Positions 27,483-51,732 of a stretch of 64,000 nucleotides of DNA are shown piece after piece; position 1 is the first letter of the stretch; every line of letters begins with the position of its first letter. The DNA is from Spirochaetia bacterium (GTDB lineage Bacteria; Spirochaetota; Spirochaetia; SZUA-6; Bin103), in NCBI GenBank assembly GCA_965243555.1, contig OZ251575.1:3269007-3333006 (forward strand), written 5' to 3'. The notes beneath the pieces were generated by a model. It did no database searches. It saw only the letters and a program-made list of their open reading frames with translations, and was not told the DNA's origin. A program made the position numbers and the translations under genes.

Positions 27483-30400
27483 CTACTCCGGTGACGGCCT
27501 CGTGGCCGGCGGCGCCGGCGCGCGGGGCCGCGTCGGCGGGCCGGCGCGGACGGGCTTCCAGGTCCTTGCGGCGTCTGCCGGGAGGCTGAGGGCGGCGGTC
27601 TCCGAGTAGAAGAACGTTTCGTAGTAGTCGCCGAGGCGTTCTTCAAAGTCCGGGTCGACTTCGTTGTGCCATTGCTTGAGCCAGGGCAGGTTTTCGTGGA
27701 TGACCGCGAGCAGCGGGGCGAGCCGGTCGGCGTCCCAGCGTTCCTTGATCTTGGCGTCGATGTAGTACGTGCCGACGGCCTGGCAAAGGGTCAGGGCGTC
27801 CCAGCCGGCCCAGCCGAGCAGGAGGGTGGGATCGTCGTCCCGGCTCATCGCCGGGAAGCTGACGAAGCGCTCCCTGGGCACGTCGAGGGCGCCGCGCAGG
27901 CGCCAGTAGCTCGGCTTGAGGAAGTCGGCGGCGCGGTACTTCGGCGGCGGCACCAGGTCCGCCGGCGGAGGGGCGTCCGCTTCCGTTTCGGCGGCGAGTT
28001 CGTCTTGGCGGCGCTGAGCGGTCCAGACCGCCTCCCAGTCGGCGCGCTTGGCGAGGCCGGAGGGCTTGTAGCGCTGCGCCGGCAGCGCCGGCACGTGCTC
28101 GCCAGCGACCAGGTCGGCGATCATCCGGGTGTGGTCGGGGTAGAGGTCTTCCCACAAGCGATCCGCGACCTTGTGGAAGGCCGCATCGTCGCCGGCCAGT
28201 ATGGCGAGGTCGCGGACGGTGGCGAGGCGCGGTTCCGGCCAGTAGTGCGGGGACTCCAGGCGGTCGAGCAACCAGCCGCGCAGGGCGCGCCGTTCCTGCT
28301 CCTGCCACGACTCGACGTTCCAGCGGCGCTTGTACTCCGGCCGTTCAAGCAGGCCGATGAAGCGGTGGGACTCGATCAGTTCGATGCGCCGCGCGACGAG
28401 GGCGCGGTAATCCTCCGGCCAGTGGGCGGGCAGGTCGGTGACCGGCGCGGAGCCGTGGCGCTTGAACCACCGGGTTTCCAGTTCGCCGGCCGCCATCCGC
28501 CGCGCCATGACGATCTCGAACGCCCGCTCGCCCAACGCCAGCGGCGGCGGTTCGGCGGCGCGGTCGCCGGGGCCGTTCGCGTAGCGGCAGTCTTCGTCGA
28601 GGACTCCGTAGAGCCGGTAGCACTCCCAGTCCAGTTCCTCCTGCAGGGCGATCATGCGCGCCAGGAGTCCGGCAGCCGCGTCTCGGTGCTCGTCAAGCTC
28701 CTCCCTCGTCAAGGGAAGGCGCCCGGCCAGTGACGCCGGCAGATGGGACTCCCGCTCGGTGCCGAGCCGATCGACTGCTTCCGACAATTCGACCGGATTT
28801 TCCGCCGGAAGCGGAATCTCCTTCACCTTCGTCGCGTTGAACTGAAAGAAGTTTTCGAACGTGTCGGTTGTTTGGCGTGCGCCCTTCGCATCGACCGTGC
28901 TTCCCTTGTTGTGCGATACTTGCTTCAGCCAGAAGCAAACCACGGAGCTATTGAGCGTGCCTGCCAGGGCAAGATGATCCGCTCCGCTCGCATCTATCGG
29001 CAGCTTGATAACGGGGGCGGTTTGGGAGAAGACTTTGCCGCCGCGGTCGAACGTGAAGTGATTGTGCGTGGCCACTTCGGCAAACGCGATTAAGCGGGGA
29101 TCGGCGTACCGTTTGGGAATCCAGCGATACCACGTCCACCAATCATCACCGGATTCGAGCCGGGTCTTGCCCCCGAACGACTTCATTCCTCCAATCGTAG
29201 TACGGTATCGCCACAGGTATTTTCCCCATGCACTCTCACCGTCGTACGCGAGGGGTTCGTTATCGCTATCGTACGGCACGAGCGCAACCGCTGATCCTTC
29301 ATAGGACCAGTCGCGGATCAGCTCGCCGACAACGTAGCCGCGTACCAACCCGGAATCCACGAGCAAGCGTCGAAACAGGTCCGCCGGCGCCACGAATGCA
29401 TCGTCGGTTCCGGTAAAGCTGGCGGGACCAATTGAAGTTGCCGCGTTGCCGAGACGATTCCGGTTCCGCTCCAACCGGAGCTTGAGCTCGTTCGCCAACG
29501 TGTCGGACACCGACCACGGGTGGCCGGCGAACGTGGCTCGAGGGACGTCAGCTACGTCAATCCATTCGTTGCCGCTGCCGGGTTCTTCTGCGTGGGTCAG
29601 GATTGACCGCCAGACCTTCCCCTCCTCCGGCTTCGCGGGAGGCGTCGGCTCGCCGCGGCGACCCATCACCACGCGCACGGCGGGCCGATCCGGAGCACGA
29701 TTGCGGCCGACGAGAATCACCGTCGGCGTGCCGTGACCGGGGATGTACGCGCCCGACGTGTCGATGACGTGGGTCAGGTCGACACTTGGGAAAAAGGACT
29801 CGATCAGCTTCCTGCCGAACTCGCGCTTCATGAACGAGTTGGCCGTGATCTGGCCAACGTAGCCGGCCGCGCCGCTTCGCCCGCCGGGGAGCGCCAACTC
29901 GAACAGTCGCTCGGCAAACGGAACGCTCATCGCGTACTTCATGTAGCAGCTCGGGTAGCGCGACCGATACAGTTGCCGCACCGCCGGGTCCTTCGGCGTG
30001 ACGTAGGGCGGGTTCCCTACCACGGCGTGGTAGTGCTGGCCGAGAATGCGGTTCAGGTCATCGAGGTCCTCGGACCGGAAGGCGTGGGAGAATTGGGAAC
30101 GGCCGGCGAGCTGCTGCTCCGCGCCGCTGCCCAGGTCCAGCTCGCCGAAGCGGCGGCCGTGGAGCAGGCTGTCGCCGACGGCTACGTTGATCTCGAACGG
30201 CGGGGCGTCCTCCAGGCGCTCGATGCCGCTCGCCCGCAGCGCCGCCAGCGCCAGGCGGAAGCGCGCGATCTCCGCCGCGAACGGATTGACGTCCACGCCG
30301 TAGACCGCGCGCAACGCGCGCTGCACCCGCTCGCACACCGGCGCGCCGGCTTTGCGCCACCGCTCAAGCAGCCGGTGGAAGGCGCCGAGCAGGAAGTGGC

Positions 30401-31115
30401 CGGAACCGCAGGCCGGATCAATGAGCCGGGTGTCCTCCAGCCCGAACTCACAGAGCGCCGGAGTGAGCGTGCGCTCCAGGATAAACTCCTCCACGAACAC
30501 CGGCGTCTGCAACAGGGCGTAGCGCTTCTTGGCGTCCTCGGAGAGGTCCTGGTACAGGTCGCCGAGGAAGCGGGTGTCCCAGGTGGGATCGGTAAAGTCG
30601 TGGTGCAGCAGGTTGGTGTCGGGGTCCACCAAGCGCCAGAACCACAGCAAGTCGCGCGCGGCGTCGCCGGAGATGCCGAGGCGCCACACCGGGTTGTGGC
30701 GCCGGTCGTAGAGCTTGGCCAGCGCGGGCAGGCGGGCGACCGAGGAAAAGCAGTGGAGCAGGTAGTCGCGGAAGGTAGCGGTGGGATGGTCTTGGAAGTA
30801 GAAACTCTGGCCTTCGGCGGCGTCCCGGTCGCGGGGGTGGGGGCCGCTGATCAGGGGTTCGTCGATCAGCCGGTTGTCCTCGATGAAACGCACGAACACG
30901 CAGCCGAGCAGCCACGCGACGGAAGCCTGGGTCAGTTCGCCGGCGCGCCAGACGCTGAAGGTCGCCGCGGTGCGCTCCGCCTCCCGCGCCGCCCGGTACT
31001 CAGCCTCCAGCGCGGCGGCCATCTCCGGCACGCTGGCAGCGCGTTGGGCCAGGTCCCGCTCCAGCAGCCGGAGCTGCCGCCGCAGGTCGCCCACCAGCGC
31101 CTGACGATCGATCAC
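27483..31115 (-). CDS. PglX-like large (1210 aa) N6-adenine DNA methyltransferase (BREX/Pgl-type), without partner genes
   Basis: GTG start. Motif I '[15 protein letters not shown]' and motif IV '[12 protein letters not shown]'. The N-terminal helical region '[38 protein letters not shown]' is what I recall for PglX-type enzymes. Size is typical of PglX. Confidence 0.75.
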
Positions 31116-35571: not shown

Positions 35572-36276
35572 GTGGCGGCGCCGGCAAACAACCGCATTCT
35601 GGTGGTGGAGGATAACGCCGACATCATGGAGCTGATCCGCTTCAACTGCGAGAAGGAGGGGTTCGTCACGCTGGCCGCGGCCAGCGCCGAGCAGGCCCTC
35701 AAGGTAGTGGAGCGGGTCTCGGTGGCGCTGATCCTGGTGGACATCATGCTGCCGGGCAGGGACGGCCTGGCGCTGTGCCGGTTGCTGAAGGCCAACGTCA
35801 TGACGCGCGGCGTGCCGATCGTGATGGTGTCGGCCAAGGGCGAGGAGGCGGACATCGTGGCCGGCCTGGAACAGGGCGCCGAGGACTACGTCACCAAACC
35901 GTTCAGCCCCCGGGTGCTGATTGCGCGCCTCAAGGCGGTGCTGCGCCGCCACGGCGCCGAGGTGCGCGACGAGCAGGCGCCGCTGACCATCGGCGAGCTG
36001 ACCATTCACCCCGGCAAGCGCGCCGTGCGTCATGCCGGCCAGCCGGTGCGCCTCACCGCGACCGAGTTCGCGGCGCTGCAGTTTCTCGCCCGCCAACCCG
36101 GCTGGGTGTTTACCCGCAACCAGCTCGTGGCCGCCGTGCACGGCCCCGACTATCCGGTGACCGACCGTTCCATCGACGTGCTGATCGCCGGGGTGCGCAA
36201 GAAGCTGGGCGCCGGGAGCGGGCTGATCGAGACGGTGCGCGGGGTCGGCTACCGCTTCTCGGAGCCGGAGCCGTAG
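35572..36276 (+). CDS. OmpR/PhoB-family response regulator
   Basis: Receiver 'RILVVEDNADI...LILVDIMLPGRDG...PIVMVSAKG' and winged helix 'LTATEFAALQFL...IETVRGVGYRF'. I moved the start to GTG 35572, because the upstream part of the tracked ORF (35464-) overlaps the GT2 gene. Confidence 0.85.
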   Translation: MAAPANNRILVVEDNADIMELIRFNCEKEGFVTLAAASAEQALKVVERVSVALILVDIMLPGRDGLALCRLLKANVMTRGVPIVMVSAKGEEADIVAGLEQGAEDYVTKPFSPRVLIARLKAVLRRHGAEVRDEQAPLTIGELTIHPGKRAVRHAGQPVRLTATEFAALQFLARQPGWVFTRNQLVAAVHGPDYPVTDRSIDVLIAGVRKKLGAGSGLIETVRGVGYRFSEPEP

Positions 36277-36284
36277 GGGCGCCC

Positions 36285-37772
36285 GTGGAGCGCCGGGCGG
36301 GCGCGGCGCCGGGGTGGGCGTCCGGGTGGGAGCCGGCGTTGCGGCTGGCGGCGGTGGCCGGCAGCTTGGCGGCGGTCGCCGCGCTGGGCGTGGTGACCGG
36401 TGTTGCCGCCGGTTCGCCGGAGCGGTCGCCGGCGGTAGTGGCGGCGGCCGCGGCGTTGCTGGCCGCCGCGGGGGCGGCGGGGCTGGCGGTATGGCGGCTC
36501 TACGCGCGTCCGGCGGCGCGTAGCGCGCGGCTGCTGGCCGCGGCGGCCGGGCACGGCGGCGGGCCGGCGCCGCCGCCGGAGGCGGCCGCGGCCGCGGCGC
36601 AGGCGCGGCTGGGCCGCCTGGAGCAGGCCAATCAGCGCCTGAGCGCGGTGATCGGCGGCCTGCCGCAGGGGGTGCTGGTGTTCGGCCGCGACGGCTCGCT
36701 GCAGGAGATCAACCCAGCCGGCTGGGAGCTGTTGGGCGCCGCCGGGGGCGCGGCCGGTGCGGCCGCCGGGGACGGCATAGGCCGTACGGGCGAAGCGAGC
36801 AGCGAGGACGGCCGGGATGGCGCCGGCGGCGAGGCGGGCGTGCGCGCCACGGCCGGGGCGGCGGCCGGCGGCGGCCGGCTCAGCGCGGCGAGCGAGCTGC
36901 TGCAGGCGCACGGCGTGGCCGCGGTGGCGGAGCCGGCGCTGTATCAGGGCGAGGGCGCTGAGGCCGACGTGCGCGTTCCCGGCCCCGAACCGCGCTGGCT
37001 GCAGGCGCAGAGCCAGCCGTTCGCCGGCGCCGGCGGCGAACCGGGCGCCCTGGTGGTGCTGCGCGACGTGACCCGCCTGCGCCATCTGGAGCAGATGCGG
37101 CGCGACTTCGTGGCCAACGTCTCCCACGAGCTGCGCACTCCGGTCACCTCCATCAGCGGGTTCGTGGAGACCCTGCTGGACAACGAGATGTGCGGCGACG
37201 CGGAGGCGCGGCGCTTTCTGCAGATCATTCAGCGGCAGTCGTTGCGCCTGGGGGCGATCATCGACGACCTGCTGAGCCTGGCCGACATCGAGTTGGGCGA
37301 GGAGCGCAGCAGCATCACCTTCGCCGACACGGCGTTGGCGCCGGTCATCTCCTCCGCCCTGTTGTCGTGCGGGCACGCCGCCGCGGCGCGCGGGGTGGCG
37401 CTGCAGGTTGCCTGCGACGCCGACCTGACCTGCCGCATGAACGCGCAGCTCGTGGAGCAGGCGGTCACCAACCTGCTCGACAACGCCATCAACTACGGCA
37501 GCCGCGGCGCGCCGGTGGCGGTGCGCGCCCGGCGCGCCGCCGGCGCCGTGCTGATCGAGGTAACCGACGCCGGCAGCGGCATTGCGCCCGAGCACCGGGA
37601 GCGCATCTTCGAGCGCTTCTACCGCGTGGACCGCGCCCGCAGCCGCGACTACGGCGGCACCGGTCTCGGCCTCGCCATCGTCAAGCACATTGCGCAGGCG
37701 CACGACGGCGAGGTGAGCGTGCGCAGCAGCGTCGGGCGCGGCAGCACCTTTACCCTGCGCCTGCCCGGGTAG
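36285..37772 (+). CDS. PhoR-like sensor histidine kinase
   Basis: H-box 'FVANVSHELRTPVTSISGF', N-box 'NLLDNAINYG', G-box 'GGTGLGLAIVKHI', two N-terminal hydrophobic segments and a PAS-like segment. The start is set at in-frame GTG 36285; the 35775-36284 part of the tracked ORF overlaps the regulator. Confidence 0.8.
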   Translation: MERRAGAAPGWASGWEPALRLAAVAGSLAAVAALGVVTGVAAGSPERSPAVVAAAAALLAAAGAAGLAVWRLYARPAARSARLLAAAAGHGGGPAPPPEAAAAAAQARLGRLEQANQRLSAVIGGLPQGVLVFGRDGSLQEINPAGWELLGAAGGAAGAAAGDGIGRTGEASSEDGRDGAGGEAGVRATAGAAAGGGRLSAASELLQAHGVAAVAEPALYQGEGAEADVRVPGPEPRWLQAQSQPFAGAGGEPGALVVLRDVTRLRHLEQMRRDFVANVSHELRTPVTSISGFVETLLDNEMCGDAEARRFLQIIQRQSLRLGAIIDDLLSLADIELGEERSSITFADTALAPVISSALLSCGHAAAARGVALQVACDADLTCRMNAQLVEQAVTNLLDNAINYGSRGAPVAVRARRAAGAVLIEVTDAGSGIAPEHRERIFERFYRVDRARSRDYGGTGLGLAIVKHIAQAHDGEVSVRSSVGRGSTFTLRLPG

Positions 37773-37807
37773 TGGCGCAGCCGGCGGGCTGAGGGTATGA
37801 TCGGCGC

Positions 37808-39175
37808 GTGGGGACGATGGGCGATGACTGGAAACAGCGCGTGCGCGATCCGGTGCACGGTCTCATCGTGTTCGGCGGGCGCGACGATCGCGGGAACGAG
37901 ATCGACCGGATCGCTTGGCGCCTGCTCGACACCAGGGAGTTCCAGCGTCTGCGCCGCATCCGCCAACTTGGCTTCGCCGATCTGGTCTATCCCGGCGCGA
38001 CCCACACCCGCTTCGCCCACAGCATCGGCGTCTACCACGTAGCGCGCCGATTGATCGCCGTGATTGCGCGCCACCGGGGATCGGAGCACGATGGCGACCG
38101 CGCGCGCGTTGCGCTCCTGGCGGCCTTGCTGCATGACGTCGGGCATGGGCCGTTCAGTCACGTGTTCGAGAGCGCGGCCAAGGCGGTGATGAAACAGACC
38201 AGACGACACGAGGAATGGAGCGCCGAAATTGTCCAAGGCGACACCGAGGTCAACCGCGTGCTGCGCGACGTCGACGAGCAACTGCCGGACCAGGTCGCCA
38301 CGCTGCTCAAGGAGGAGGAGGCGAAGGACATCTACTCCGCCGTCGTGTCCAGCCAGTTCGACGCCGACCGGATCGACTACATCCAACGTGACCGGATGAT
38401 GAGCGGCGTCCAATTCGGCCACGTCGACAGCGAATGGCTGCTCGATTGCCTGCAGGTCGGTTCGATCAGCGTCGGCGCCTCCGACTACGTAACGGTGCCA
38501 TGCATGTATCTCGGCGCCAAGGGGCTGGCAATTGCCGAGGAATATCTGGAGGCGAGGTTCCGGCTCTACCGGACGGTATACGTGCACAAGACGACGCGGT
38601 CGGCGGAGAAGATGCTGGAGGCTTTGTTGCGGTCGGCGGCGTCTTCGCTGCGGGGGAGCTGCCTGGCCCAGCGGGAGCCGGTGTTGCGGTATCTCACGGC
38701 GGAGGGCCCGGCGCTCGACGCGTACCTGCGGCTCGACGACGCGGCGATCTGGGCCGCGTTTGCCGAATACGCCGCCTGCCCGCAGCCTCGCGTCGCCGAG
38801 CTGGCCGCCCGGTTGCGCGATCGCAACCTCTACAAGTGCCTGGAGATCGGATCGCTGGACGAACGTAAGGGCAACCTGTACGAGCGGTTCCGGCGGCGGT
38901 TGCAAGAACGCAACCTCGCGTGGAGCGACGAGCTGCTGTTCGATGACTCTACGATCGCGCCGTACACCTGGTACAACTTCAATGAAGCATCGGCGCTCAG
39001 CAAGGTTCTCGTGAAGGTCGACGCGACGATGGACGAGCCGCGGGACATCGCCGAAGTCTCCGCGGTCGTGACGGCGCTCCATGACGAAGGGGTCAGCCGG
39101 GTGCAGCGCGTCTACGCACCTGACAGGGAAAAAAGGGCCGAACTCTACGACGTCCTCAAGGAGGTGAGAACGTGA
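37808..39175 (+). CDS. SAMHD1/EF1143-like HD-domain dNTP triphosphohydrolase family protein
   Basis: 'VRDPVHGLI...TREFQRLRRIRQLG...THTRFAHSIGVYHVA', 'LLHDVGHGPFSH' and 'FDADRIDYIQRDR' give the H...HD...D metal-site pattern of SAMHD1-type HD hydrolases. Alternative start ATG 37817. Confidence 0.8.
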   Translation: MGTMGDDWKQRVRDPVHGLIVFGGRDDRGNEIDRIAWRLLDTREFQRLRRIRQLGFADLVYPGATHTRFAHSIGVYHVARRLIAVIARHRGSEHDGDRARVALLAALLHDVGHGPFSHVFESAAKAVMKQTRRHEEWSAEIVQGDTEVNRVLRDVDEQLPDQVATLLKEEEAKDIYSAVVSSQFDADRIDYIQRDRMMSGVQFGHVDSEWLLDCLQVGSISVGASDYVTVPCMYLGAKGLAIAEEYLEARFRLYRTVYVHKTTRSAEKMLEALLRSAASSLRGSCLAQREPVLRYLTAEGPALDAYLRLDDAAIWAAFAEYAACPQPRVAELAARLRDRNLYKCLEIGSLDERKGNLYERFRRRLQERNLAWSDELLFDDSTIAPYTWYNFNEASALSKVLVKVDATMDEPRDIAEVSAVVTALHDEGVSRVQRVYAPDREKRAELYDVLKEVRT

Positions 39176-39717
39176 ACTTCGAGGAGTTTGAAGATATTGT
39201 CGTCAACCTGATCGCGCTGCATGATGGCGGTGAATTGGTCGGGAGGGCTCGGCTGCAGTGGGAAGCGTATCTCTTGCACCGCAGCGGAGCGAATTTTGAT
39301 CTGCCGGACCCGTTCACCTATCACGACTATGGGCCGTACTCCGGTGCCCTCGTCTACGGGCTGCTTGACGCCCGCGCCAACGACCGGATCGAGATCGAGG
39401 AAGCGCTCGGGCGCTACGCAATCCGTTATGAGATCTTCCGATTGAAGGGAGACCGGGACGGACATGGTGACCTCGGCGACCTGCCGGCCGGCCATGCCCG
39501 GCCGCTGGTGCGGGAGCTGCAGGAGGTCTCCGACCTCGTCCTGGAGCTGGCCGCGGCCATCGTCTTTCTGCGCGAAGAGTGGGGCTACGGACCTGACGCG
39601 GAGGCCGAGACGGCGGTGCGCAAGCCGCTCAAGGCGACGGAGGAACGCATGGGGAAGGCGCTCGATCTGCTAAGCAAACTCGGTCTGCGGCGCGAGGCGG
39701 GCGCAGTTACCGCCTGA
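39172..39717 (+). CDS. Small protein with DUF4065/Panacea-like core, translationally coupled to the HD gene
   Basis: GTG 39172 overlaps the HD stop (GTGA), and a strong SD AAGGAGGTGA lies 6 nt upstream. 'RLQWEAYLL...FTYHDYGPYSGALVYGL' resembles the DUF4065 core 'KLQKLLY...W.YGPV....Y'. Family call from memory. Confidence 0.45.
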   Translation: MNFEEFEDIVVNLIALHDGGELVGRARLQWEAYLLHRSGANFDLPDPFTYHDYGPYSGALVYGLLDARANDRIEIEEALGRYAIRYEIFRLKGDRDGHGDLGDLPAGHARPLVRELQEVSDLVLELAAAIVFLREEWGYGPDAEAETAVRKPLKATEERMGKALDLLSKLGLRREAGAVTA

Positions 39718-39812
39718 ATCACGCGCAGGGACCTCGCGCGGCGCCCCCGGGCGCGGGGACGGAACCCGGCGCAACGCCGCCGCCGCCGCAGCGGCAGCAG
39801 TAGCGGGTCTGC

Positions 39813-39841
39813 TTGCTCGGTAGGGAACGGCGCCCTATACT
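39813..39841 (+). promoter_or_regulatory. Likely sigma70-type promoter of gltA (TTGCTC - 17 nt - TATACT)
   Basis: -35 at 39813-39818 and -10 at 39836-39841, with the ATG at 39857, so the leader is short. Confidence 0.45.
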
Positions 39842-39856
39842 TGTAGTGGACTATTC

Positions 39857-41152
39857 ATGAACGACAGGGACGCGGCGCGGATCTCGATCCGGGGGGCCGA
39901 CTACAGGTTGCCGTTGGTATGCGGCAGCGAGGGCGAGATTGCGGTGGACGTTTCGCGGTTGCGCAGTGAGGCGGGGGTAACCACGATCGATCCCGGGTAC
40001 GGCAACACCGCGGCGTGCCGTAGCGGCGTCACCTTCATTGACGGTGAGCGCGGCATTTTGCGTTACCGTGGCGTGCCGATCGAGCAGCTTGCCGAGCACA
40101 GCACCTTTCTGGAGGCGGCGTGGCTGCTGATGGAGGGCGAGCTGCCGAGCCGGGAGCAACTCGCCGCCTTCATTGACCACATCACCCACCACACCATGAT
40201 CCACGAGGACGTGAAGCGGTTCTACGCCGGGTTCCCGCACCAGGCCCACCCCATGGCCATCACCGGCGCCGTGGTCGGCGCGCTCTCCACCTTCTATCCC
40301 GACTCGATGGAGGTGACCGACGACCGCGAGATGGAAATCGCCATCCACCGGCTCATCGCCAAGGTGCCGACCATCGTCGCCTACTCCTACAAGCACTCCA
40401 ACGGCCAGCCGTTCATGTCGCCGCTCAACAAGCTCGACTACGCCTCCAACTTCCTGCACATGATGTTCGCCACGCCGGCGGAGGAGTACGTGGTCGATCC
40501 GGTGGTGGCGCGCACCATGGACCTGATCTTCCTGCTGCACGCCGACCACGAGCAGAACTGCTCGGCGAGCACGGTGCGCATGGTGGGCAGCTCACAGGCC
40601 AACCTGTTCTCTGCCATCTCGGCCGGCGTGCACGCCCTGTGGGGGCCGCTGCACGGCGGCGCCAACCAGGCGGTGGTGGAAATGCTGCAGCAGATCCTGG
40701 CCACCGGCGACGACGGCCGCCAGTTCCTGGACAAGGTCAAGAACAAGCGCGCCGGCACGCGGCTCATGGGCTTCGGCCACCGCGTGTACAAGAACTTCGA
40801 CCCGCGCGCCACCATCATCAAGCGCGCCTGTTTCGAGGTGCTGGAACGGCTCAACGTCGCCAACCCGCTGCTCGACCTGGCGGTGCAGCTCGAGGAGACC
40901 GCCTTGCGCGACGAATACTTCATCTCCCGCAAGCTCTATCCCAACGTCGACTTCTACTCCGGCATCATCCTGCAGGCGCTCGGCGTACCGGTGAACATGT
41001 TCACCACCCTGTTCGCCATCGGCCGCCTGCCGGGCTGGATTGCCCACTGGGTGGAGATGATCCACGATCCCGACACCAAGATCGCCCGCCCGCGCCAGAT
41101 CTACACCGGCGCCCGGGAACGCCCCTACGTTCCCATGGAGCAGCGCGCCTAA
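39857..41152 (+). CDS. gltA: Citrate synthase
   Basis: 'GFGHRVYKNFDPRA', 'LHADHEQNCSASTVR' and 'NVDFYSGII' are citrate synthase signatures; 431 aa. Confidence 0.95.
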   Translation: MNDRDAARISIRGADYRLPLVCGSEGEIAVDVSRLRSEAGVTTIDPGYGNTAACRSGVTFIDGERGILRYRGVPIEQLAEHSTFLEAAWLLMEGELPSREQLAAFIDHITHHTMIHEDVKRFYAGFPHQAHPMAITGAVVGALSTFYPDSMEVTDDREMEIAIHRLIAKVPTIVAYSYKHSNGQPFMSPLNKLDYASNFLHMMFATPAEEYVVDPVVARTMDLIFLLHADHEQNCSASTVRMVGSSQANLFSAISAGVHALWGPLHGGANQAVVEMLQQILATGDDGRQFLDKVKNKRAGTRLMGFGHRVYKNFDPRATIIKRACFEVLERLNVANPLLDLAVQLEETALRDEYFISRKLYPNVDFYSGIILQALGVPVNMFTTLFAIGRLPGWIAHWVEMIHDPDTKIARPRQIYTGARERPYVPMEQRA

Positions 41153-41715
41153 CGGCTTGCCGGCGGCGGCGGCTCCTGCTGCCGGTCGAGGTGGACGCGG
41201 CTGCCGACCGCGCCCGGCTGGTGCTGGTACTTGCCGCGGTAGGGGTGGGCCGTGCTGCGGTCCAGTTGCGCGAACACGATTTGGCAGATGCGCCGCCCGG
41301 CGCGCAGCCGAATGGGCAGGCGGTTGGCGTTGAACAGCTCCAAGGTGAGGATGCCGTCGAAGCCGGGGTCCACCCAGCCGGCATTCTGAATGAACAGGCC
41401 GAGGCGCCCGATCGAGCTGCGGCCCTCCACGAACGCGGTGACGTTGCGCGGCAGCCTGATGCGCTCGCGGGTCTCGGCGAGCAGAAACGAGAGCGGCGGA
41501 ATCACGATCTCGCCGCTCGTGCCGGTGCGCAGCTCGGTGTAGCGCAGCTCGGTATCCAGGGTGATGCGGTCGACGGCGTTCTCGTCCACCTTGAGGAAGT
41601 GGTCGCCCAGGGTGAGGTCGATGGAGGCGGGCTGTAGCTGATCCGGCGCCAGCGGCTCCACCACCACCTCGCCGCGGTCCATCAGCTCCCGCAGGGTCTC
41701 CTGCGAAACGATCAC
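41149..41715 (-). CDS. dcd: dCTP deaminase
   Basis: 188 aa with GTG start. 'LQPASIDLTLG' and 'NAGWVDPGFDGILTLEL' are the canonical Dcd pattern. Confidence 0.9.
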   Translation of the reverse strand: MIVSQETLRELMDRGEVVVEPLAPDQLQPASIDLTLGDHFLKVDENAVDRITLDTELRYTELRTGTSGEIVIPPLSFLLAETRERIRLPRNVTAFVEGRSSIGRLGLFIQNAGWVDPGFDGILTLELFNANRLPIRLRAGRRICQIVFAQLDRSTAHPYRGKYQHQPGAVGSRVHLDRQQEPPPPASR

Positions 41716-48604: not shown

Positions 48605-50470
48605 TTACCCCGCATGATGGGCTAGGCGGCTCCCGGCTGTCAACCGCCAGCTGCTCATAGTCCGTAGACCCTTCGGCATCGCACTGAGCGCACGGACACC
48701 GATCCGCTCACCGGCAGAAACGACCAAGCCGAACGCCTCCCAGACCAGTGAGTTGATCTCCTCACGGCTGGAATCATCATCTTCCGACGGAATAGCGTCG
48801 TACAACAATTTAGCGCTGGCAATGATCTTCTTTCCGACCGTCCCGTGGGGATCGGGTAGCGGAAATTTCTCCACGTACTGCGTCATGAATCGCCGGCGCC
48901 CCGAATAGAGCTTGTTGTTGAAGCGATAGTCGTAAAAACGTTCAATGAACGTTGAATTGCCAACCGCTGCGGCAAGCCACAACAGGTCGGATTGTTCCGG
49001 GTCGTCACAAGTCAACCAATAGCAGTCTCCGTTGACGACCGACCCATCCAGATCAAGCCAGAACGTGGGCTGCTCGACGATATCGCGAAAAACCAACTTG
49101 GGATGCTGCCACAAGTCCGGGTTTTGTGGCACCCATATTTCATACCACCTGCGTCCCGCGGCCAGGACGTAATGGCGAGCTTCGAGCGTGGCACGATGTC
49201 GTTCAAGGTAGGCTCGACTGCACGGGTAGCTGGTCAGGTCCACGGCTCTGCGGCGCCCCCGCACCCGTTCGTGCGGATACAGAATCCGGGGAGACCGAGG
49301 CCCACCGCAAGGCTTGAAGCGGCGCGCCGCGTGATGGGACGTAAGCGGCCTCAACAGCTCAGGGCACTTCGCCCCGGTGACTTCCTCCCAGTCATCCCGG
49401 ACAAACACGCTATCGGCGCAGGTCTTTACTCCGACGCGGATCTTTCCGACTCGCCGAAACGTCGACCAGGTATTATCATCGACGCGGGATAGCCATGCGT
49501 CGGCACTTCCATTGGCAAGGCGCCAGACCCCGTCTGCGGCGCCGTTCGTGTCGAGTATTCCGTGTCGGACGTGGAACCGCCGACCGTCGTCAGTGCGGAC
49601 GCAGCCGTCGTGACTGAGGGCGGAGACCGGGTCGGTTGACCGGTGCGTAGCCGGCTTGGCGGTCTCATATATTGTCGTAAAAGTGGAACGGGATACGTGG
49701 CCGCGATCTTTGCCGGGGCAATCCTTGCCGTCGAGAATCAATACCGCGGGGAGAACTGCGGCATCAAATAACTTGGTGTCCCCAAGGTCCCACGCGCTGC
49801 GAACGTTCAGTTGCTCCATGAGGGCCTTCCGTACGATGGCTCCGGACTTCACCGTCATGAAGCGGTTGGAGACGATCAGTCCGGCCGTGCCGTGGGGCTT
49901 GAGGGCGCGCGCAATGGCGAGAATAAAAGCATAGTAGAGGTCCAATCTTCCGGAAAGGCCGAATTGTCGGGCAAGCGCTTGCGCTTGCCGGGCTCCCATG
50001 ATCTGGGTCCGCACGTATGGCGGATTGGCAATTATCATGTCATAGCGCTTGCCTCCGGCATCGCGAAAGAGATCACTTTGGTGGTTCGATGCAAAGCGAT
50101 CCATGGCAAACTTGAGGAAGTTGCCGTGCCGCAGATGGAGTCGTGATTCAGGAACCTGTTGCTCCAGTCTTGAGCGCGCGAATTGAAGCGCCTCCAAACT
50201 GGTCTCGAAACCATGGACCTCAAGGTTCATGTCGCCGCCGCACTCGCGCAGGCGTTGAAGCAGTTTTACAAGGAGTTCTCCGTGACCGAGAGCGGGGTCC
50301 AGGATTCGCGTCGGGTGGTCTTCGGAGGGTGTTCCTCTGGCTTGGACGATCTGGCGGGCGACGAAATCGGCGAGCAGGCTGGGAGTATACGTGACTCCGT
50401 CTGATTTACGCCGGCTCACGCCGGCGTATCGTTCCGCGCGGCGCGGCCTACCAAGGGTTCCGCTGCTCAT
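48605..50470 (-). CDS. Stand-alone gamma-class N6-adenine DNA methyltransferase (Eco57I/TaqI-like, with TaqI_C-like target-recognition domain)
   Basis: 'YTPSLLADFVARQIV', motif I 'ILDPALGHGELL' and motif IV 'IIANPPYVRTQ'. C-terminal 'IRVGVKTCADSVFV' is TRD-like. Spot GC ~57%. No nuclease partner is recognisable nearby. Confidence 0.8.
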   Translation of the reverse strand: MSSGTLGRPRRAERYAGVSRRKSDGVTYTPSLLADFVARQIVQARGTPSEDHPTRILDPALGHGELLVKLLQRLRECGGDMNLEVHGFETSLEALQFARSRLEQQVPESRLHLRHGNFLKFAMDRFASNHQSDLFRDAGGKRYDMIIANPPYVRTQIMGARQAQALARQFGLSGRLDLYYAFILAIARALKPHGTAGLIVSNRFMTVKSGAIVRKALMEQLNVRSAWDLGDTKLFDAAVLPAVLILDGKDCPGKDRGHVSRSTFTTIYETAKPATHRSTDPVSALSHDGCVRTDDGRRFHVRHGILDTNGAADGVWRLANGSADAWLSRVDDNTWSTFRRVGKIRVGVKTCADSVFVRDDWEEVTGAKCPELLRPLTSHHAARRFKPCGGPRSPRILYPHERVRGRRRAVDLTSYPCSRAYLERHRATLEARHYVLAAGRRWYEIWVPQNPDLWQHPKLVFRDIVEQPTFWLDLDGSVVNGDCYWLTCDDPEQSDLLWLAAAVGNSTFIERFYDYRFNNKLYSGRRRFMTQYVEKFPLPDPHGTVGKKIIASAKLLYDAIPSEDDDSSREEINSLVWEAFGLVVSAGERIGVRALSAMPKGLRTMSSWRLTAGSRLAHHAG

Positions 50471-50887: not shown

Positions 50888-51427
50888 CTAAACTACACGG
50901 CCCTGATACGTTGTTGTCACAGCGTCGGCAATCAGGTTACCCACCAGCGCTGCCCGGGATGAATCTCTCGGCAACCCAAGAATCTCACAATGAGACGGAT
51001 CTTCTTCGTAGTTTCCTTCTGCAGGAAGTGGACGGAGCTCAAAACTTAGATCAACGTAGCCACGAACTCTCTGCTTCGTTTCCCCGACTTCCAACTCTGC
51101 AAAGCGTCCGTTACGACTCAAGGTAATGCGCGACAGTCTCCGAATTCGATCGAGCTGATCTTCTCTAGTGACACCAAAATAGTCTAGCCAATTGACTGAC
51201 AGACCGTCCTCGCCGTCTCGCAGACGAAACGCCGCCCCATCGATGCTTCCATCGTCCCGGACCAGCCGGGGCCGGACGTACCGCACGACATGGTTCCCAT
51301 CAGATATTTCGCTGCCTGCTGAATAATTCACTCCAGGATCGAAGTCAGTCCCGACAACTTGATTTGCCCTATAATCTCGTCGAGTGTGTCTCGACCCGCC
51401 GTAGGTTTCAGGGTTTCGGTGCGCCAC
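50888..51427 (-). CDS. Hypothetical protein (low-GC cassette, gene 3)
   Basis: 179-aa ORF that overlaps the upstream ORF by 100 nt, so the true start may be GTG at 51286 (133 aa). No family recognised. Spot GC ~43-50%. Confidence 0.5.
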   Translation of the reverse strand: MAHRNPETYGGSRHTRRDYRANQVVGTDFDPGVNYSAGSEISDGNHVVRYVRPRLVRDDGSIDGAAFRLRDGEDGLSVNWLDYFGVTREDQLDRIRRLSRITLSRNGRFAELEVGETKQRVRGYVDLSFELRPLPAEGNYEEDPSHCEILGLPRDSSRAALVGNLIADAVTTTYQGRVV

Positions 51428-51732
51428 ATCACGTACTCGGCATTTTGGTCCCCGAGGAACTCTATCCCAAGGTGTTCGTAACTCCCTCTACGCCAAACGA
51501 TACGCAGATTACCATCATCAGTAACTACAACATTAGCTCTACGTGCCATCGGCATTGACCGTATGAACGTCCAGAAATCTTGTTCGGACTTCTCTCTGAC
51601 GACTATATCATCCATCTCGGCGTAGTTTTTCAGCGTTTCAATTCGGGCCTGATACGCATGCTTATGCCGTAACGCATGATTAGAGCGACGAGACGCCTTA
51701 TTGAACGTTGGCTTTCTGAAGTGGACTGACAT
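51328..51732 (-). CDS. Hypothetical protein (low-GC cassette, gene 2)
   Basis: 134-aa ORF. Its ATG overlaps the stop of the 60-aa ORF upstream (TGATG). No family recognised. Confidence 0.5.
   Translation of the reverse strand: MSVHFRKPTFNKASRRSNHALRHKHAYQARIETLKNYAEMDDIVVREKSEQDFWTFIRSMPMARRANVVVTDDGNLRIVWRRGSYEHLGIEFLGDQNAEYVMWRTETLKPTAGRDTLDEIIGQIKLSGLTSILE

Follow-up and report, generated by a model that had tools for sequence, protein, structure and literature searches.

Within a 64,000-nucleotide (nt) stretch of the genome of a Spirochaetia bacterium (contig OZ251575.1, positions 3,269,007 to 3,333,006 of the forward strand; the whole stretch is called the window below), a gene for an HD-domain phosphohydrolase overlaps a gene for a small partner protein. 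The question raised by this locus is whether the two genes make up a defensive module, i.e., a deoxynucleoside triphosphate (dNTP) hydrolase held in check by its partner, or a pair of housekeeping genes. A first-pass annotation, made from the sequence alone, had proposed the former and had likened the partner to the Panacea (DUF4065) antitoxin domain. We find that the pair is best explained as a horizontally mobile two-gene accessory module, and we lean, with modest confidence, towards a dNTP-depleting effector that is restrained by its binding partner in a toxin-antitoxin (TA)-like or anti-phage module. The features on which the argument turns are listed here in window coordinates.

37808..39175, + strand: gene for an HD-domain dNTP triphosphohydrolase-like protein of the EF1143/SAMHD1 type (Pfam match, PDB sequence match and conserved residues)
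39172..39717, + strand: partner gene, 181 amino acids (aa), of a YwgA / DarG-C-terminal-domain-like family (homologues, fold model and profiles)
39158..39167, + strand: Shine-Dalgarno-like AAGGAGGTGA within the 3' end of the HD gene (read from the sequence)
39172..39175, + strand: GTGA overlap, the GTG of the small gene (39172) lying over the TGA stop of the HD gene (39173-39175) (read from the sequence)

The two genes are inherited together

Both open reading frames (ORFs) named by the first-pass annotation, of 455 aa and 181 aa, are present, as is the GTGA overlap behind a AAGGAGGTGA Shine-Dalgarno sequence, which we read at 39158-39175. The family matches and homologues given below show that neither ORF arose by chance. 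The GGAGG core of AAGGAGGTGA ends 7 nt ahead of the start of the small gene, and the overlap itself implies that translation of the two genes is coupled.

A scan of one genome per species, with loci found through the small gene, gave 79 loci from Spirochaetia, Alpha- and Gammaproteobacteria, Latescibacterota, Acidobacteriota, Rhodothermales, Bacteroidota and Chloroflexota. In 76 of these 79 loci the gene immediately preceding the small one encodes an HD homologue, and for the majority of related loci the end of the HD match and the beginning of the small-gene match are no more than about 30 nt apart. In a reciprocal test on metagenomes, all HD proteins scoring above about 430 bits against a profile of partnered HD proteins, and followed by enough downstream DNA, have the small gene next to them; HD proteins scoring 200-300 bits are mostly solitary, and a few of them have a more distant small homologue either upstream or downstream. 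We conclude that the pair is inherited as one unit.

Of the two proteins, the small one changes more quickly, with identities of about 36-71% as opposed to about 38-81% for the HD protein across the same loci. The HD gene has been deleted, truncated or interrupted by an insertion of 1-1.3 kb at about ten loci that keep an intact small gene, a pattern that is suggestive of a costly effector. Many of the loci surveyed come from long-read metagenome-assembled genomes, where a lone frameshift may stem from the assembly. In two cases (L007, 3303-5986, and L037, 3608-5983) the HD gene is split by inserts of about 1.0-1.3 kb that are possibly insertion sequence (IS) elements, with the downstream small gene intact.

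The HD protein belongs to the EF1143/SAMHD1 branch

The HD gene encodes 455 aa from a GTG at 37808 and 452 aa from an ATG at 37817. The ATG is the likelier start because homologues and an independent gene call (L080) begin there, and the protein then begins MGDDWKQR. Pfam searches retrieved HD (4.8e-12) and HD_assoc_2 (1.6e-10), and the motifs RFAHSIGVYH, LLHDVGHGPFSH and FDADRIDYIQRDR, which had been quoted for this protein as a SAMHD1-type metal site, are all found in it. The top match among PDB sequences is the Enterococcus faecalis dNTP triphosphohydrolase EF1143 (2o6i/3irh/4lrl), with an E-value of 1.1e-42 to 2o6i over residues 35-438. It is followed by two uncharacterized HD structures and then by SAMHD1 (E 1e-17 to 1e-22), the latter over residues 31-170 in the N-terminal half. 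A solved 483-aa "HD domain-containing protein" (PDB 9mr6) matches at 5.5e-26 over residues 9-346.

Matches to the Dgt-like enzymes are of a different order. The defensive dGTPase of Shewanella (9p8w) is retrieved at only 1.5e-5, and dGTPase profiles cover only about 100 N-terminal residues and stay far under their curated cut-offs, namely the PADLOC profile at 1.8e-9 and the NCBIfam anti-phage dGTPase profile at 1.6e-5, the latter scoring 24 bits against a cut-off of 400 bits. There are also weak partial matches to Cas3-HD (E 1e-3 to 1e-4) and PbeC profiles.

We aligned 30 partnered HD homologues (39-81% identity). H66, R68, H71, H109-D110, H113, H118, H134, D185, D187, R188, D190, Y191, R194 and D195 are invariant in 30/30, as is an FQRLRR.RQLG segment. 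By the SAMHD1 numbering, we take the invariant residues to match the metal ligands, catalytic histidines and substrate contacts of SAMHD1, and the FQRLRR segment presumably aligns with part of SAMHD1's guanine-specific allosteric site. The window's HD family is named "HD superfamily phosphohydrolase" by the Joint Genome Institute (JGI), which we take to be the name of COG1078/YdhJ.

Judged by its sequence, then, the HD protein is an enzyme of the EF1143/SAMHD1 branch with an intact active site, as the first-pass annotation had it, and it falls outside the Dgt-like branch that holds the defensive dGTPases and CloA. It most likely hydrolyzes dNTPs to deoxynucleosides and triphosphate; this prediction, together with that of allosteric activation and a tetramer, draws on the conservation of the residues that we take to form the catalytic and allosteric sites. 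With EF1143 and SAMHD1 it shares the HD fold, the H..HD..D residues plus the HDxGHGPFSH and FDADRxDY motifs, and a C-terminal HD-associated region. In contrast to both, the clade to which it belongs is strictly coupled to a DarG-like partner gene, and, unlike SAMHD1, it has no SAM domain. We know of no such partner gene for either EF1143 or SAMHD1.

The partner is a stand-alone relative of the DarG C-terminal domain

When searched alone, the small protein retrieved no match in Pfam, NCBIfam or PDB sequences, and as its only match a weak one (0.012) to the PADLOC DarG profile, which aligns from its positions 169-217 onward of 329. No macrodomain was matched in the 181 aa by the Pfam and PADLOC profiles. 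Homologues are plentiful: a word-indexed search gave 71, down to an E-value of 3.6e-16, and an exhaustive profile search gave 1,674 representative clusters at 50% identity (E<=1e-3). Their consensus reads GRTRLQKEAYLL...F.YHHYGPYS..L ... LELAAT ... RKPLKAT.

The first-pass annotation had read a DUF4065-like core into this protein, and had held that its idea would fail if no significant DUF4065/Panacea match were found. Taken to the letter, that is the outcome, because PF13274 (DUF4065/Panacea, SocA_Panacea) has no match to the window's small protein at E<=1. Nor did it match any of 43 close family members at E<=10 (0/43) or any of seven distant ones (0/7), and of 51 diverse members one was retrieved at a non-significant 0.026. 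We therefore dropped the name "Panacea-domain protein" as a statement of membership.

Nevertheless, the likeness that had been noticed (RLQ[KW]..YLL ... YGPYS) reflects real homology, and it leads to DarG. A confident AlphaFold2 model of the protein, based on the alignment of its family (predicted local distance difference test 91.2, predicted template modeling score 0.88), begins with a winged-helix-like unit and ends in a helical bundle, with seven helices plus hairpins. This arrangement resembles the Panacea fold as given in PMC10440598, i.e., a compact alpha1-alpha7 with a beta1-beta2 hairpin. Foldseek searches of the model against two structure libraries returned no match bearing a Panacea or DUF4065 name. 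The best PDB match was instead 7yk3_B, the DarT-binding C-terminal domain of Mycobacterium tuberculosis DarG (E 8.1e-4, probability 1.0; template modeling (TM) scores 0.54/0.52 over 191 columns), which is the sole PDB match at E<=0.001 and the sole full-length one at probability 1.0. PadR-type regulators came next, with E>0.3, probabilities of 0.6-0.94, target-normalized TM scores of about 0.45-0.5 and partial coverage, and viral structures gave only unnamed Sulfolobus-virus proteins, which are uninformative.

Profile searches agree with the structural match. The PADLOC DarG profile matches 51/51 diverse family members (best 2e-13), and the family profile finds the 7yk3_B sequence at 2.1e-4, aligning RLQK..YLL...F.YhhYGPYSe with EIQKLMYF...FTPGRYGPYSE, LELAAT with ELLAST, and RKPeKA with RKWTK. 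At the first of these motifs the window's protein is unusual, since its codon 30 (39259-39261) is a tryptophan (RLQW). The lysine of the RLQK motif, a motif found in DarG too, occupies this position in at least 90% of the family, and the tryptophan recurs in one other homologue (P0069).

On the sequence and model evidence we regard the partner as a stand-alone protein of a DarG-C-terminal-domain/YwgA family. It is probably akin to Panacea at the superfamily level and lies outside the Pfam family, the link running indirectly through the DarG C-terminal domain, so that the first-pass assignment would stand in this broader sense and not as a PF13274 match. PMC13621843 (2026) draws the same connection, describing DUF4065 proteins as homologous to the DarG C-terminal domain with a marginal E-value of about 1e-3 to 7YK3. 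Database names are divided, with one member called "DUF4065 domain-containing protein" in UniRef and many called "uncharacterized protein YwgA" by JGI.

By structure and by profile alike, the partner can be aligned over its entire 181 aa with the DarG C-terminal domain, at about 18% identity to DarG. That domain reportedly neutralizes the toxin DarT by direct binding (Deep et al. 2023). The locus differs from DarTG in that the partner has no macrodomain and there is no DarT, the adjoining gene in 76/79 loci being that of an HD phosphohydrolase and not of an ADP-ribosyltransferase.

Genomic contexts point to a mobile module

None of the window's seven flanking genes is common to any of the 79 loci, and the same flanks are kept only in very close relatives (91-99% nucleotide identity). 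Core-genome synteny, which would have told against the first-pass idea, was thus rejected (0/79 loci with the window's flanks), and the neighborhood check that it had called for found the pairing conserved and the pair accessory.

The neighbors were then surveyed as the two nearest ORFs per locus (130 immediate neighbors at 66 loci, the gene calls being greedy ORF picks). The most frequent Pfam families were Methylase_S (9), ResIII (7), Eco57I (7), N6_Mtase (6) and N6_N4_Mtase (5), and PADLOC gives matching restriction-modification (RM) profiles for the neighbors of the pair. Two architectures recur on clustering and in scans of representatives, hsdR-hsdM-[HD-small]-hsdS in type I systems (e.g., L036) and mod-[HD-small]-res in type III systems (e.g., L056). 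A homology sweep found the type I arrangement at 13 loci, plus two with remnants, and the type III arrangement at 9 loci; the pair thus lies within an RM operon at 22-24 of the 79 loci (about 30%).

Other copies keep different company. A copy on a Rhizobium plasmid has HipA, Ku and an IS element as neighbors, and further copies adjoin a phage-integrase fragment and an Mrr gene, or a Zeta-toxin-like kinase. Three prophage-type contigs from IMG/VR carry the pair; its neighbors on such contigs include two tyrosine integrases, or a TIR protein and HicA (L174). Cultured strains among the carriers are Chelatococcus asaccharovorans DSM 6462 (L058), Methylocystis borbori 9N (L061), Mesorhizobium ciceri LMG 14989 (L066), Brevundimonas halotolerans MCS24 (L075) and Labrys okinawensis DSM 18385 (L076), among others. 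Two genomes have two pairs each (L003 and L053 in OZ244929.1; L020 and L036 in CBDATE01), the small proteins of the second copies being divergent, at 42-50% identity to the window's. In a rough neighbor-joining distance tree without bootstrap, the HD proteins depart from taxonomy, with the window's Spirochaetia clade sister to the type-I-embedded clade and the type-III-embedded clade more distant. These observations are best explained by an accessory module of two genes that moves horizontally. As to the kinase just mentioned, at L091 (8555-9064, + strand), and also at L092, the Zeta_toxin/AAA_33 kinase-like gene lies 48 nt past the pair and may be a third component there.

Relation to described systems

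The first-pass annotation was not aware of this pairing having been described, but it already has an entry: in their Dataset S1, Kurata et al. 2022 give a predicted cluster, pT33/T34 (e.g., WP_115792121.1 with WP_115792120.1), in which an "HD domain-containing protein" (YdhJ in CDD) stands with PanA in five Clostridia genomes, in the order T|A, with gaps of -4, 0, -17, -17 and +23, and marked "notest". The window's pair resembles T34 in its toxin-then-antitoxin order, its short overlap and its combination of an HD phosphohydrolase with a small protein probably of the Panacea superfamily, and the core motif of PanA is of the same kind as the partner's (.LQK..Y... / YGP). It differs in that the window's partner family falls short of the PF13274 model, and the likeness to T34 is drawn from the description of that cluster. 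The Panacea and NetFlax papers make no mention of the pair in their main texts, and embedding in RM operons was not seen in the portions consulted of Kurata et al. 2022.

The closest mechanistic parallel is Clover, in which, according to PMC12265719, the dGTPase CloA becomes more than 10,000-fold toxic once its restraining partner CloB is inactivated. The module proposed here would likewise join a dNTP-hydrolyzing HD effector to a second gene that restrains its toxicity, for antiviral nucleotide depletion. In contrast, CloA and the defensive dGTPases are Dgt-like and the window's enzyme is of another HD dNTPase branch, and CloB is a nucleotidyltransferase that restrains through the small molecule p3diT, whereas the window's partner is the homologue of a non-enzymatic binding domain.

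By location, the pair is comparable to PrrC, TgvAB and the PDC candidates of PADLOC, defense genes that lie in type I RM operons; the pair itself lies in RM operons at the 13 type I and 9 type III loci. Its effector is HD dNTPase-like, neither anticodon nuclease nor GmrSD enzyme. One PDC profile is related to the partner: PDC-M19A, from a two-gene cassette embedded in RM/bacteriophage exclusion (BREX) systems and put forward by the guilt-by-embedding screen, is matched by 39/51 small-protein homologues (best 7.9e-7), and the HD partners match none of the PDC profiles, PDC-M19B included. Like Panacea, then, the DarG-like module seems to be combined with differing effectors. The supplement of Payne et al. 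2024 gives nothing but family numbers for PDC-M19, and our literature search on YwgA, ywfO and PDC-M19 found nothing functional.

What appears, within the range of what was searched, to be new is the partner found in the large lineage of Proteobacteria, Spirochaetia and Latescibacterota, which lies outside Pfam DUF4065 and is DarG-C-terminal-domain-like; the very large size of the partner family and its near-obligate coupling to one HD sub-clade; and the recurrent insertion inside type I and type III RM operons.

Candidate function and alternatives

In the reading that we slightly favor, the small protein would bind the dNTPase and keep it inactive, or gate its allosteric activation, in uninfected cells. 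Phage infection, loss of a labile partner, or interference with a neighboring restriction system would release the enzyme, whereupon the dNTP pool would collapse and replication of phage and cell DNA would halt. We propose the effector role because of the HD homology and the intact catalytic residues, and restraint by the partner because its nearest characterized relative is a toxin-blocking domain, the genes are coupled, and Clover offers a precedent. The defense reading is drawn from embedding in RM operons, a feature that has repeatedly marked real defense systems (TgvAB, PMC11411939; the guilt-by-embedding screen of Payne et al. 2024). The locus also has the traits of a type II TA locus, i.e., adjacent, co-oriented and overlapping genes, conserved pairing, and a patchy, mobile distribution. 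Overall, we take the cassette to be probably an anti-phage or TA-like module and not a pair of housekeeping genes. For it we infer dNTPase activity, toxicity, physical binding, a trigger and phage protection.

A number of observations weigh against this reading. The window's own copy has no RM operon around it, and its neighbors are housekeeping genes (the kinase, gltA, dcd and uvrC); six Spirochaetia loci share a housekeeping context, with DAO (downstream) and RlmN-like genes, and the Rhodothermales context is likewise housekeeping (DctM, MgsA). Searches by tblastn with small-protein homologues against phage and PLSDB plasmid collections gave no match, and PADLOC v2 does not list the pair among its systems. 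In the dGTPase profile the HD proteins match no more than the generic N-terminal portion, and the small protein fails the Pfam Panacea model and, with W30, departs from the family's RLQK lysine. We would also like to note that the excess of decayed HD genes is ascertainment-biased, as the loci were found through the small gene. Finally, the JGI label points to Bacillus subtilis YwgA and hence to a possible non-defense regulatory role.

This last point belongs to the best of the alternatives, in which the HD protein is a housekeeping or stress enzyme of the nucleotide pool and the small protein is its dedicated YwgA-like allosteric or assembly subunit, with no TA or immune role; the RM neighborhoods would then reflect island co-transfer or a link to DNA metabolism. 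Trimming or sanitizing of the dNTP pool has been proposed for EF1143 and B. subtilis YwfO, JGI names the small-protein family members "YwgA", and we presume, from the order of gene naming, that B. subtilis ywgA lies beside ywfO. In PMC4993169, ywfO is an HD phosphohydrolase treated as housekeeping. The setting in the Spirochaetia fits as well, with DNA-metabolism genes such as dcd and uvrC among the window's housekeeping neighbors, flanks that the close relatives retain, and one stable non-defense context (the DAO gene downstream) at the six loci. We nonetheless consider this alternative the less likely one, since the pair is patchy across phyla with an HD tree incongruent with taxonomy, its flanks differ in every other lineage, and 22-24 of the 79 copies sit inside RM operons. 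Some copies adjoin integrases, IS elements or TA genes, single genomes carry duplicates, the HD gene has been lost repeatedly, and the partner's nearest characterized relative is a toxin-neutralizing domain.

A more specific variant of defense, which we regard as doubtful, would make the pair a second-line guard of RM complexes, like PrrC. The small protein would sense anti-restriction by phage or loss of RM function and free the dNTPase, which would collapse the dNTP pool, and the copies outside RM operons, the window's included, would be autonomous abortive-infection or TA descendants. The YwfO-YwgA pair of B. subtilis would be part of this system too. The small protein could then possibly act as a nucleic-acid mimic, a behavior reported for the DarG C-terminal domain.

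The winged-helix-like unit suggests yet another role for the small protein, mainly that of a transcription factor that autoregulates the operon without touching the enzyme, which would be regulated by nucleotides only. The N-terminal half of the model does resemble PadR-type winged-helix regulators in weak Foldseek matches, and type II antitoxins often double as repressors. However, those matches have E>0.3 and partial coverage, and the best, full-length match is the toxin-binding domain of DarG, which to our knowledge is not a DNA-binding regulator. The 4-nt overlap and near-obligate co-occurrence better suit a stoichiometric protein partner, and an upstream scan found no operator-like repeat or promoter consensus, so that we hold this role to be improbable. 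Scarcely likely either is that the HD protein acts on another substrate (modified or signaling nucleotides, or nucleic-acid ends) as an RM accessory with the small protein as its recruiting adaptor, for although the HD superfamily is chemically diverse, with weak partial Cas3-HD and PbeC matches here, and a position between hsdM and hsdS or mod and res suggests integration with RM complexes, the similarity to the dNTPase EF1143 and to SAMHD1 is full-length and takes in the HD_assoc_2 region, the residues that we take for SAMHD1's catalytic and substrate set are conserved, the Cas3-HD matches are marginal (E 1e-3 to 1e-4), and more than half of the pairs have no RM neighbor at all.

Surroundings and base composition in the window

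The pair lies, as first annotated, between a kinase gene and gltA, i.e., between a HisKA/HATPase_c kinase gene, itself preceded by that of its response regulator, and the citrate synthase gene, beyond which follow genes for dCTP deaminase (dcd), uvrC, holA and lexA. One further feature bounds the cassette.

39718..39856, no strand: spacer of 139 nt from the small gene to gltA, the downstream boundary of the cassette (read from the sequence)

A scan of 37500-39950 found no consensus terminator or sigma-70 promoter. The citrate synthase gene (39857-41152, + strand) and the dCTP deaminase gene (DCD_N/DCD; 41149-41715, - strand) converge, their 3' ends overlapping by 4 nt. A second gene of dNTP metabolism thus lies close beside the HD pair, an adjacency found in no related locus.

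The GC content of the pair had been given as visibly lower than that of its flanks, at 52-58%. In 500-nt windows it is 61.8-67.2% and never falls to the earlier range; it is indeed below the upstream kinase gene (70-82%), but the downstream gltA is similar (64-66%). The N-terminal part of the kinase gene (36250-37000, + strand) reaches 82% GC in a low-complexity stretch rich in Ala, Gly and Arg, and the apparent drop into the HD gene is therefore inflated. We rejected a marked GC dip as a sign of recent insertion, the dip being modest and gltA similar. GC at third codon positions (GC3) gives a clearer signal, lying below most nearby genes at 0.85 in the HD gene and 0.78 in the small gene, with a window median of 0.885 and values of 0.93-0.94 in gltA, dcd, htpG and a glycosyltransferase gene; the lower GC3 fits an acquired and largely ameliorated cassette but is not proof of one.

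Elsewhere in the window, two type IIG-like RM genes lie about 7-9 kb to either side of the pair (27486-31115 and 48608-50470, both - strand). Going by the L080 gene calls, one of them has a match to MmeI_Mtase/Eco57I/DUF7008 and the other to N6_Mtase/Eco57I/TaqI_C. The second (48608-50470) has a GC3 of 0.67, which suggests foreign origin. It is adjoined by an ORF of 134 codons (51331-51732, - strand) with a GC of 0.50 and a GC3 of 0.55 in a window of 70% GC, probably a remnant of horizontally acquired DNA. A single ORF of about 6,965 codons (4954-25848, + strand; GC3 0.92) fills one third of the window; this is very likely a genuine gene of giant size.

Significance

Should the favored reading hold, i.e., a dNTP-depleting effector restrained by its binding partner, the pair would be a counterpart, in the SAMHD1 branch, of the nucleotide-depletion defenses that bacteria have built on the Dgt branch. 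Restraint would come from a protein partner of the DarG/Panacea superfamily, in contrast to the nucleotide signal of Clover. With 1,674 clusters at 50% identity the partner family is large, and the pair occurs across many phyla. PADLOC v2 lacks the pair, and Pfam is blind to the partner. The recurrent insertions, between hsdM and hsdS or between mod and res, provide guilt-by-embedding with a further well-defined case. The pairing is plausible rather than startling, and it is directly testable. The partner family probably includes the uncharacterized YwgA of B. subtilis, because JGI gives its members that name, and YwfO/YwgA of that organism would give a tractable entry point.

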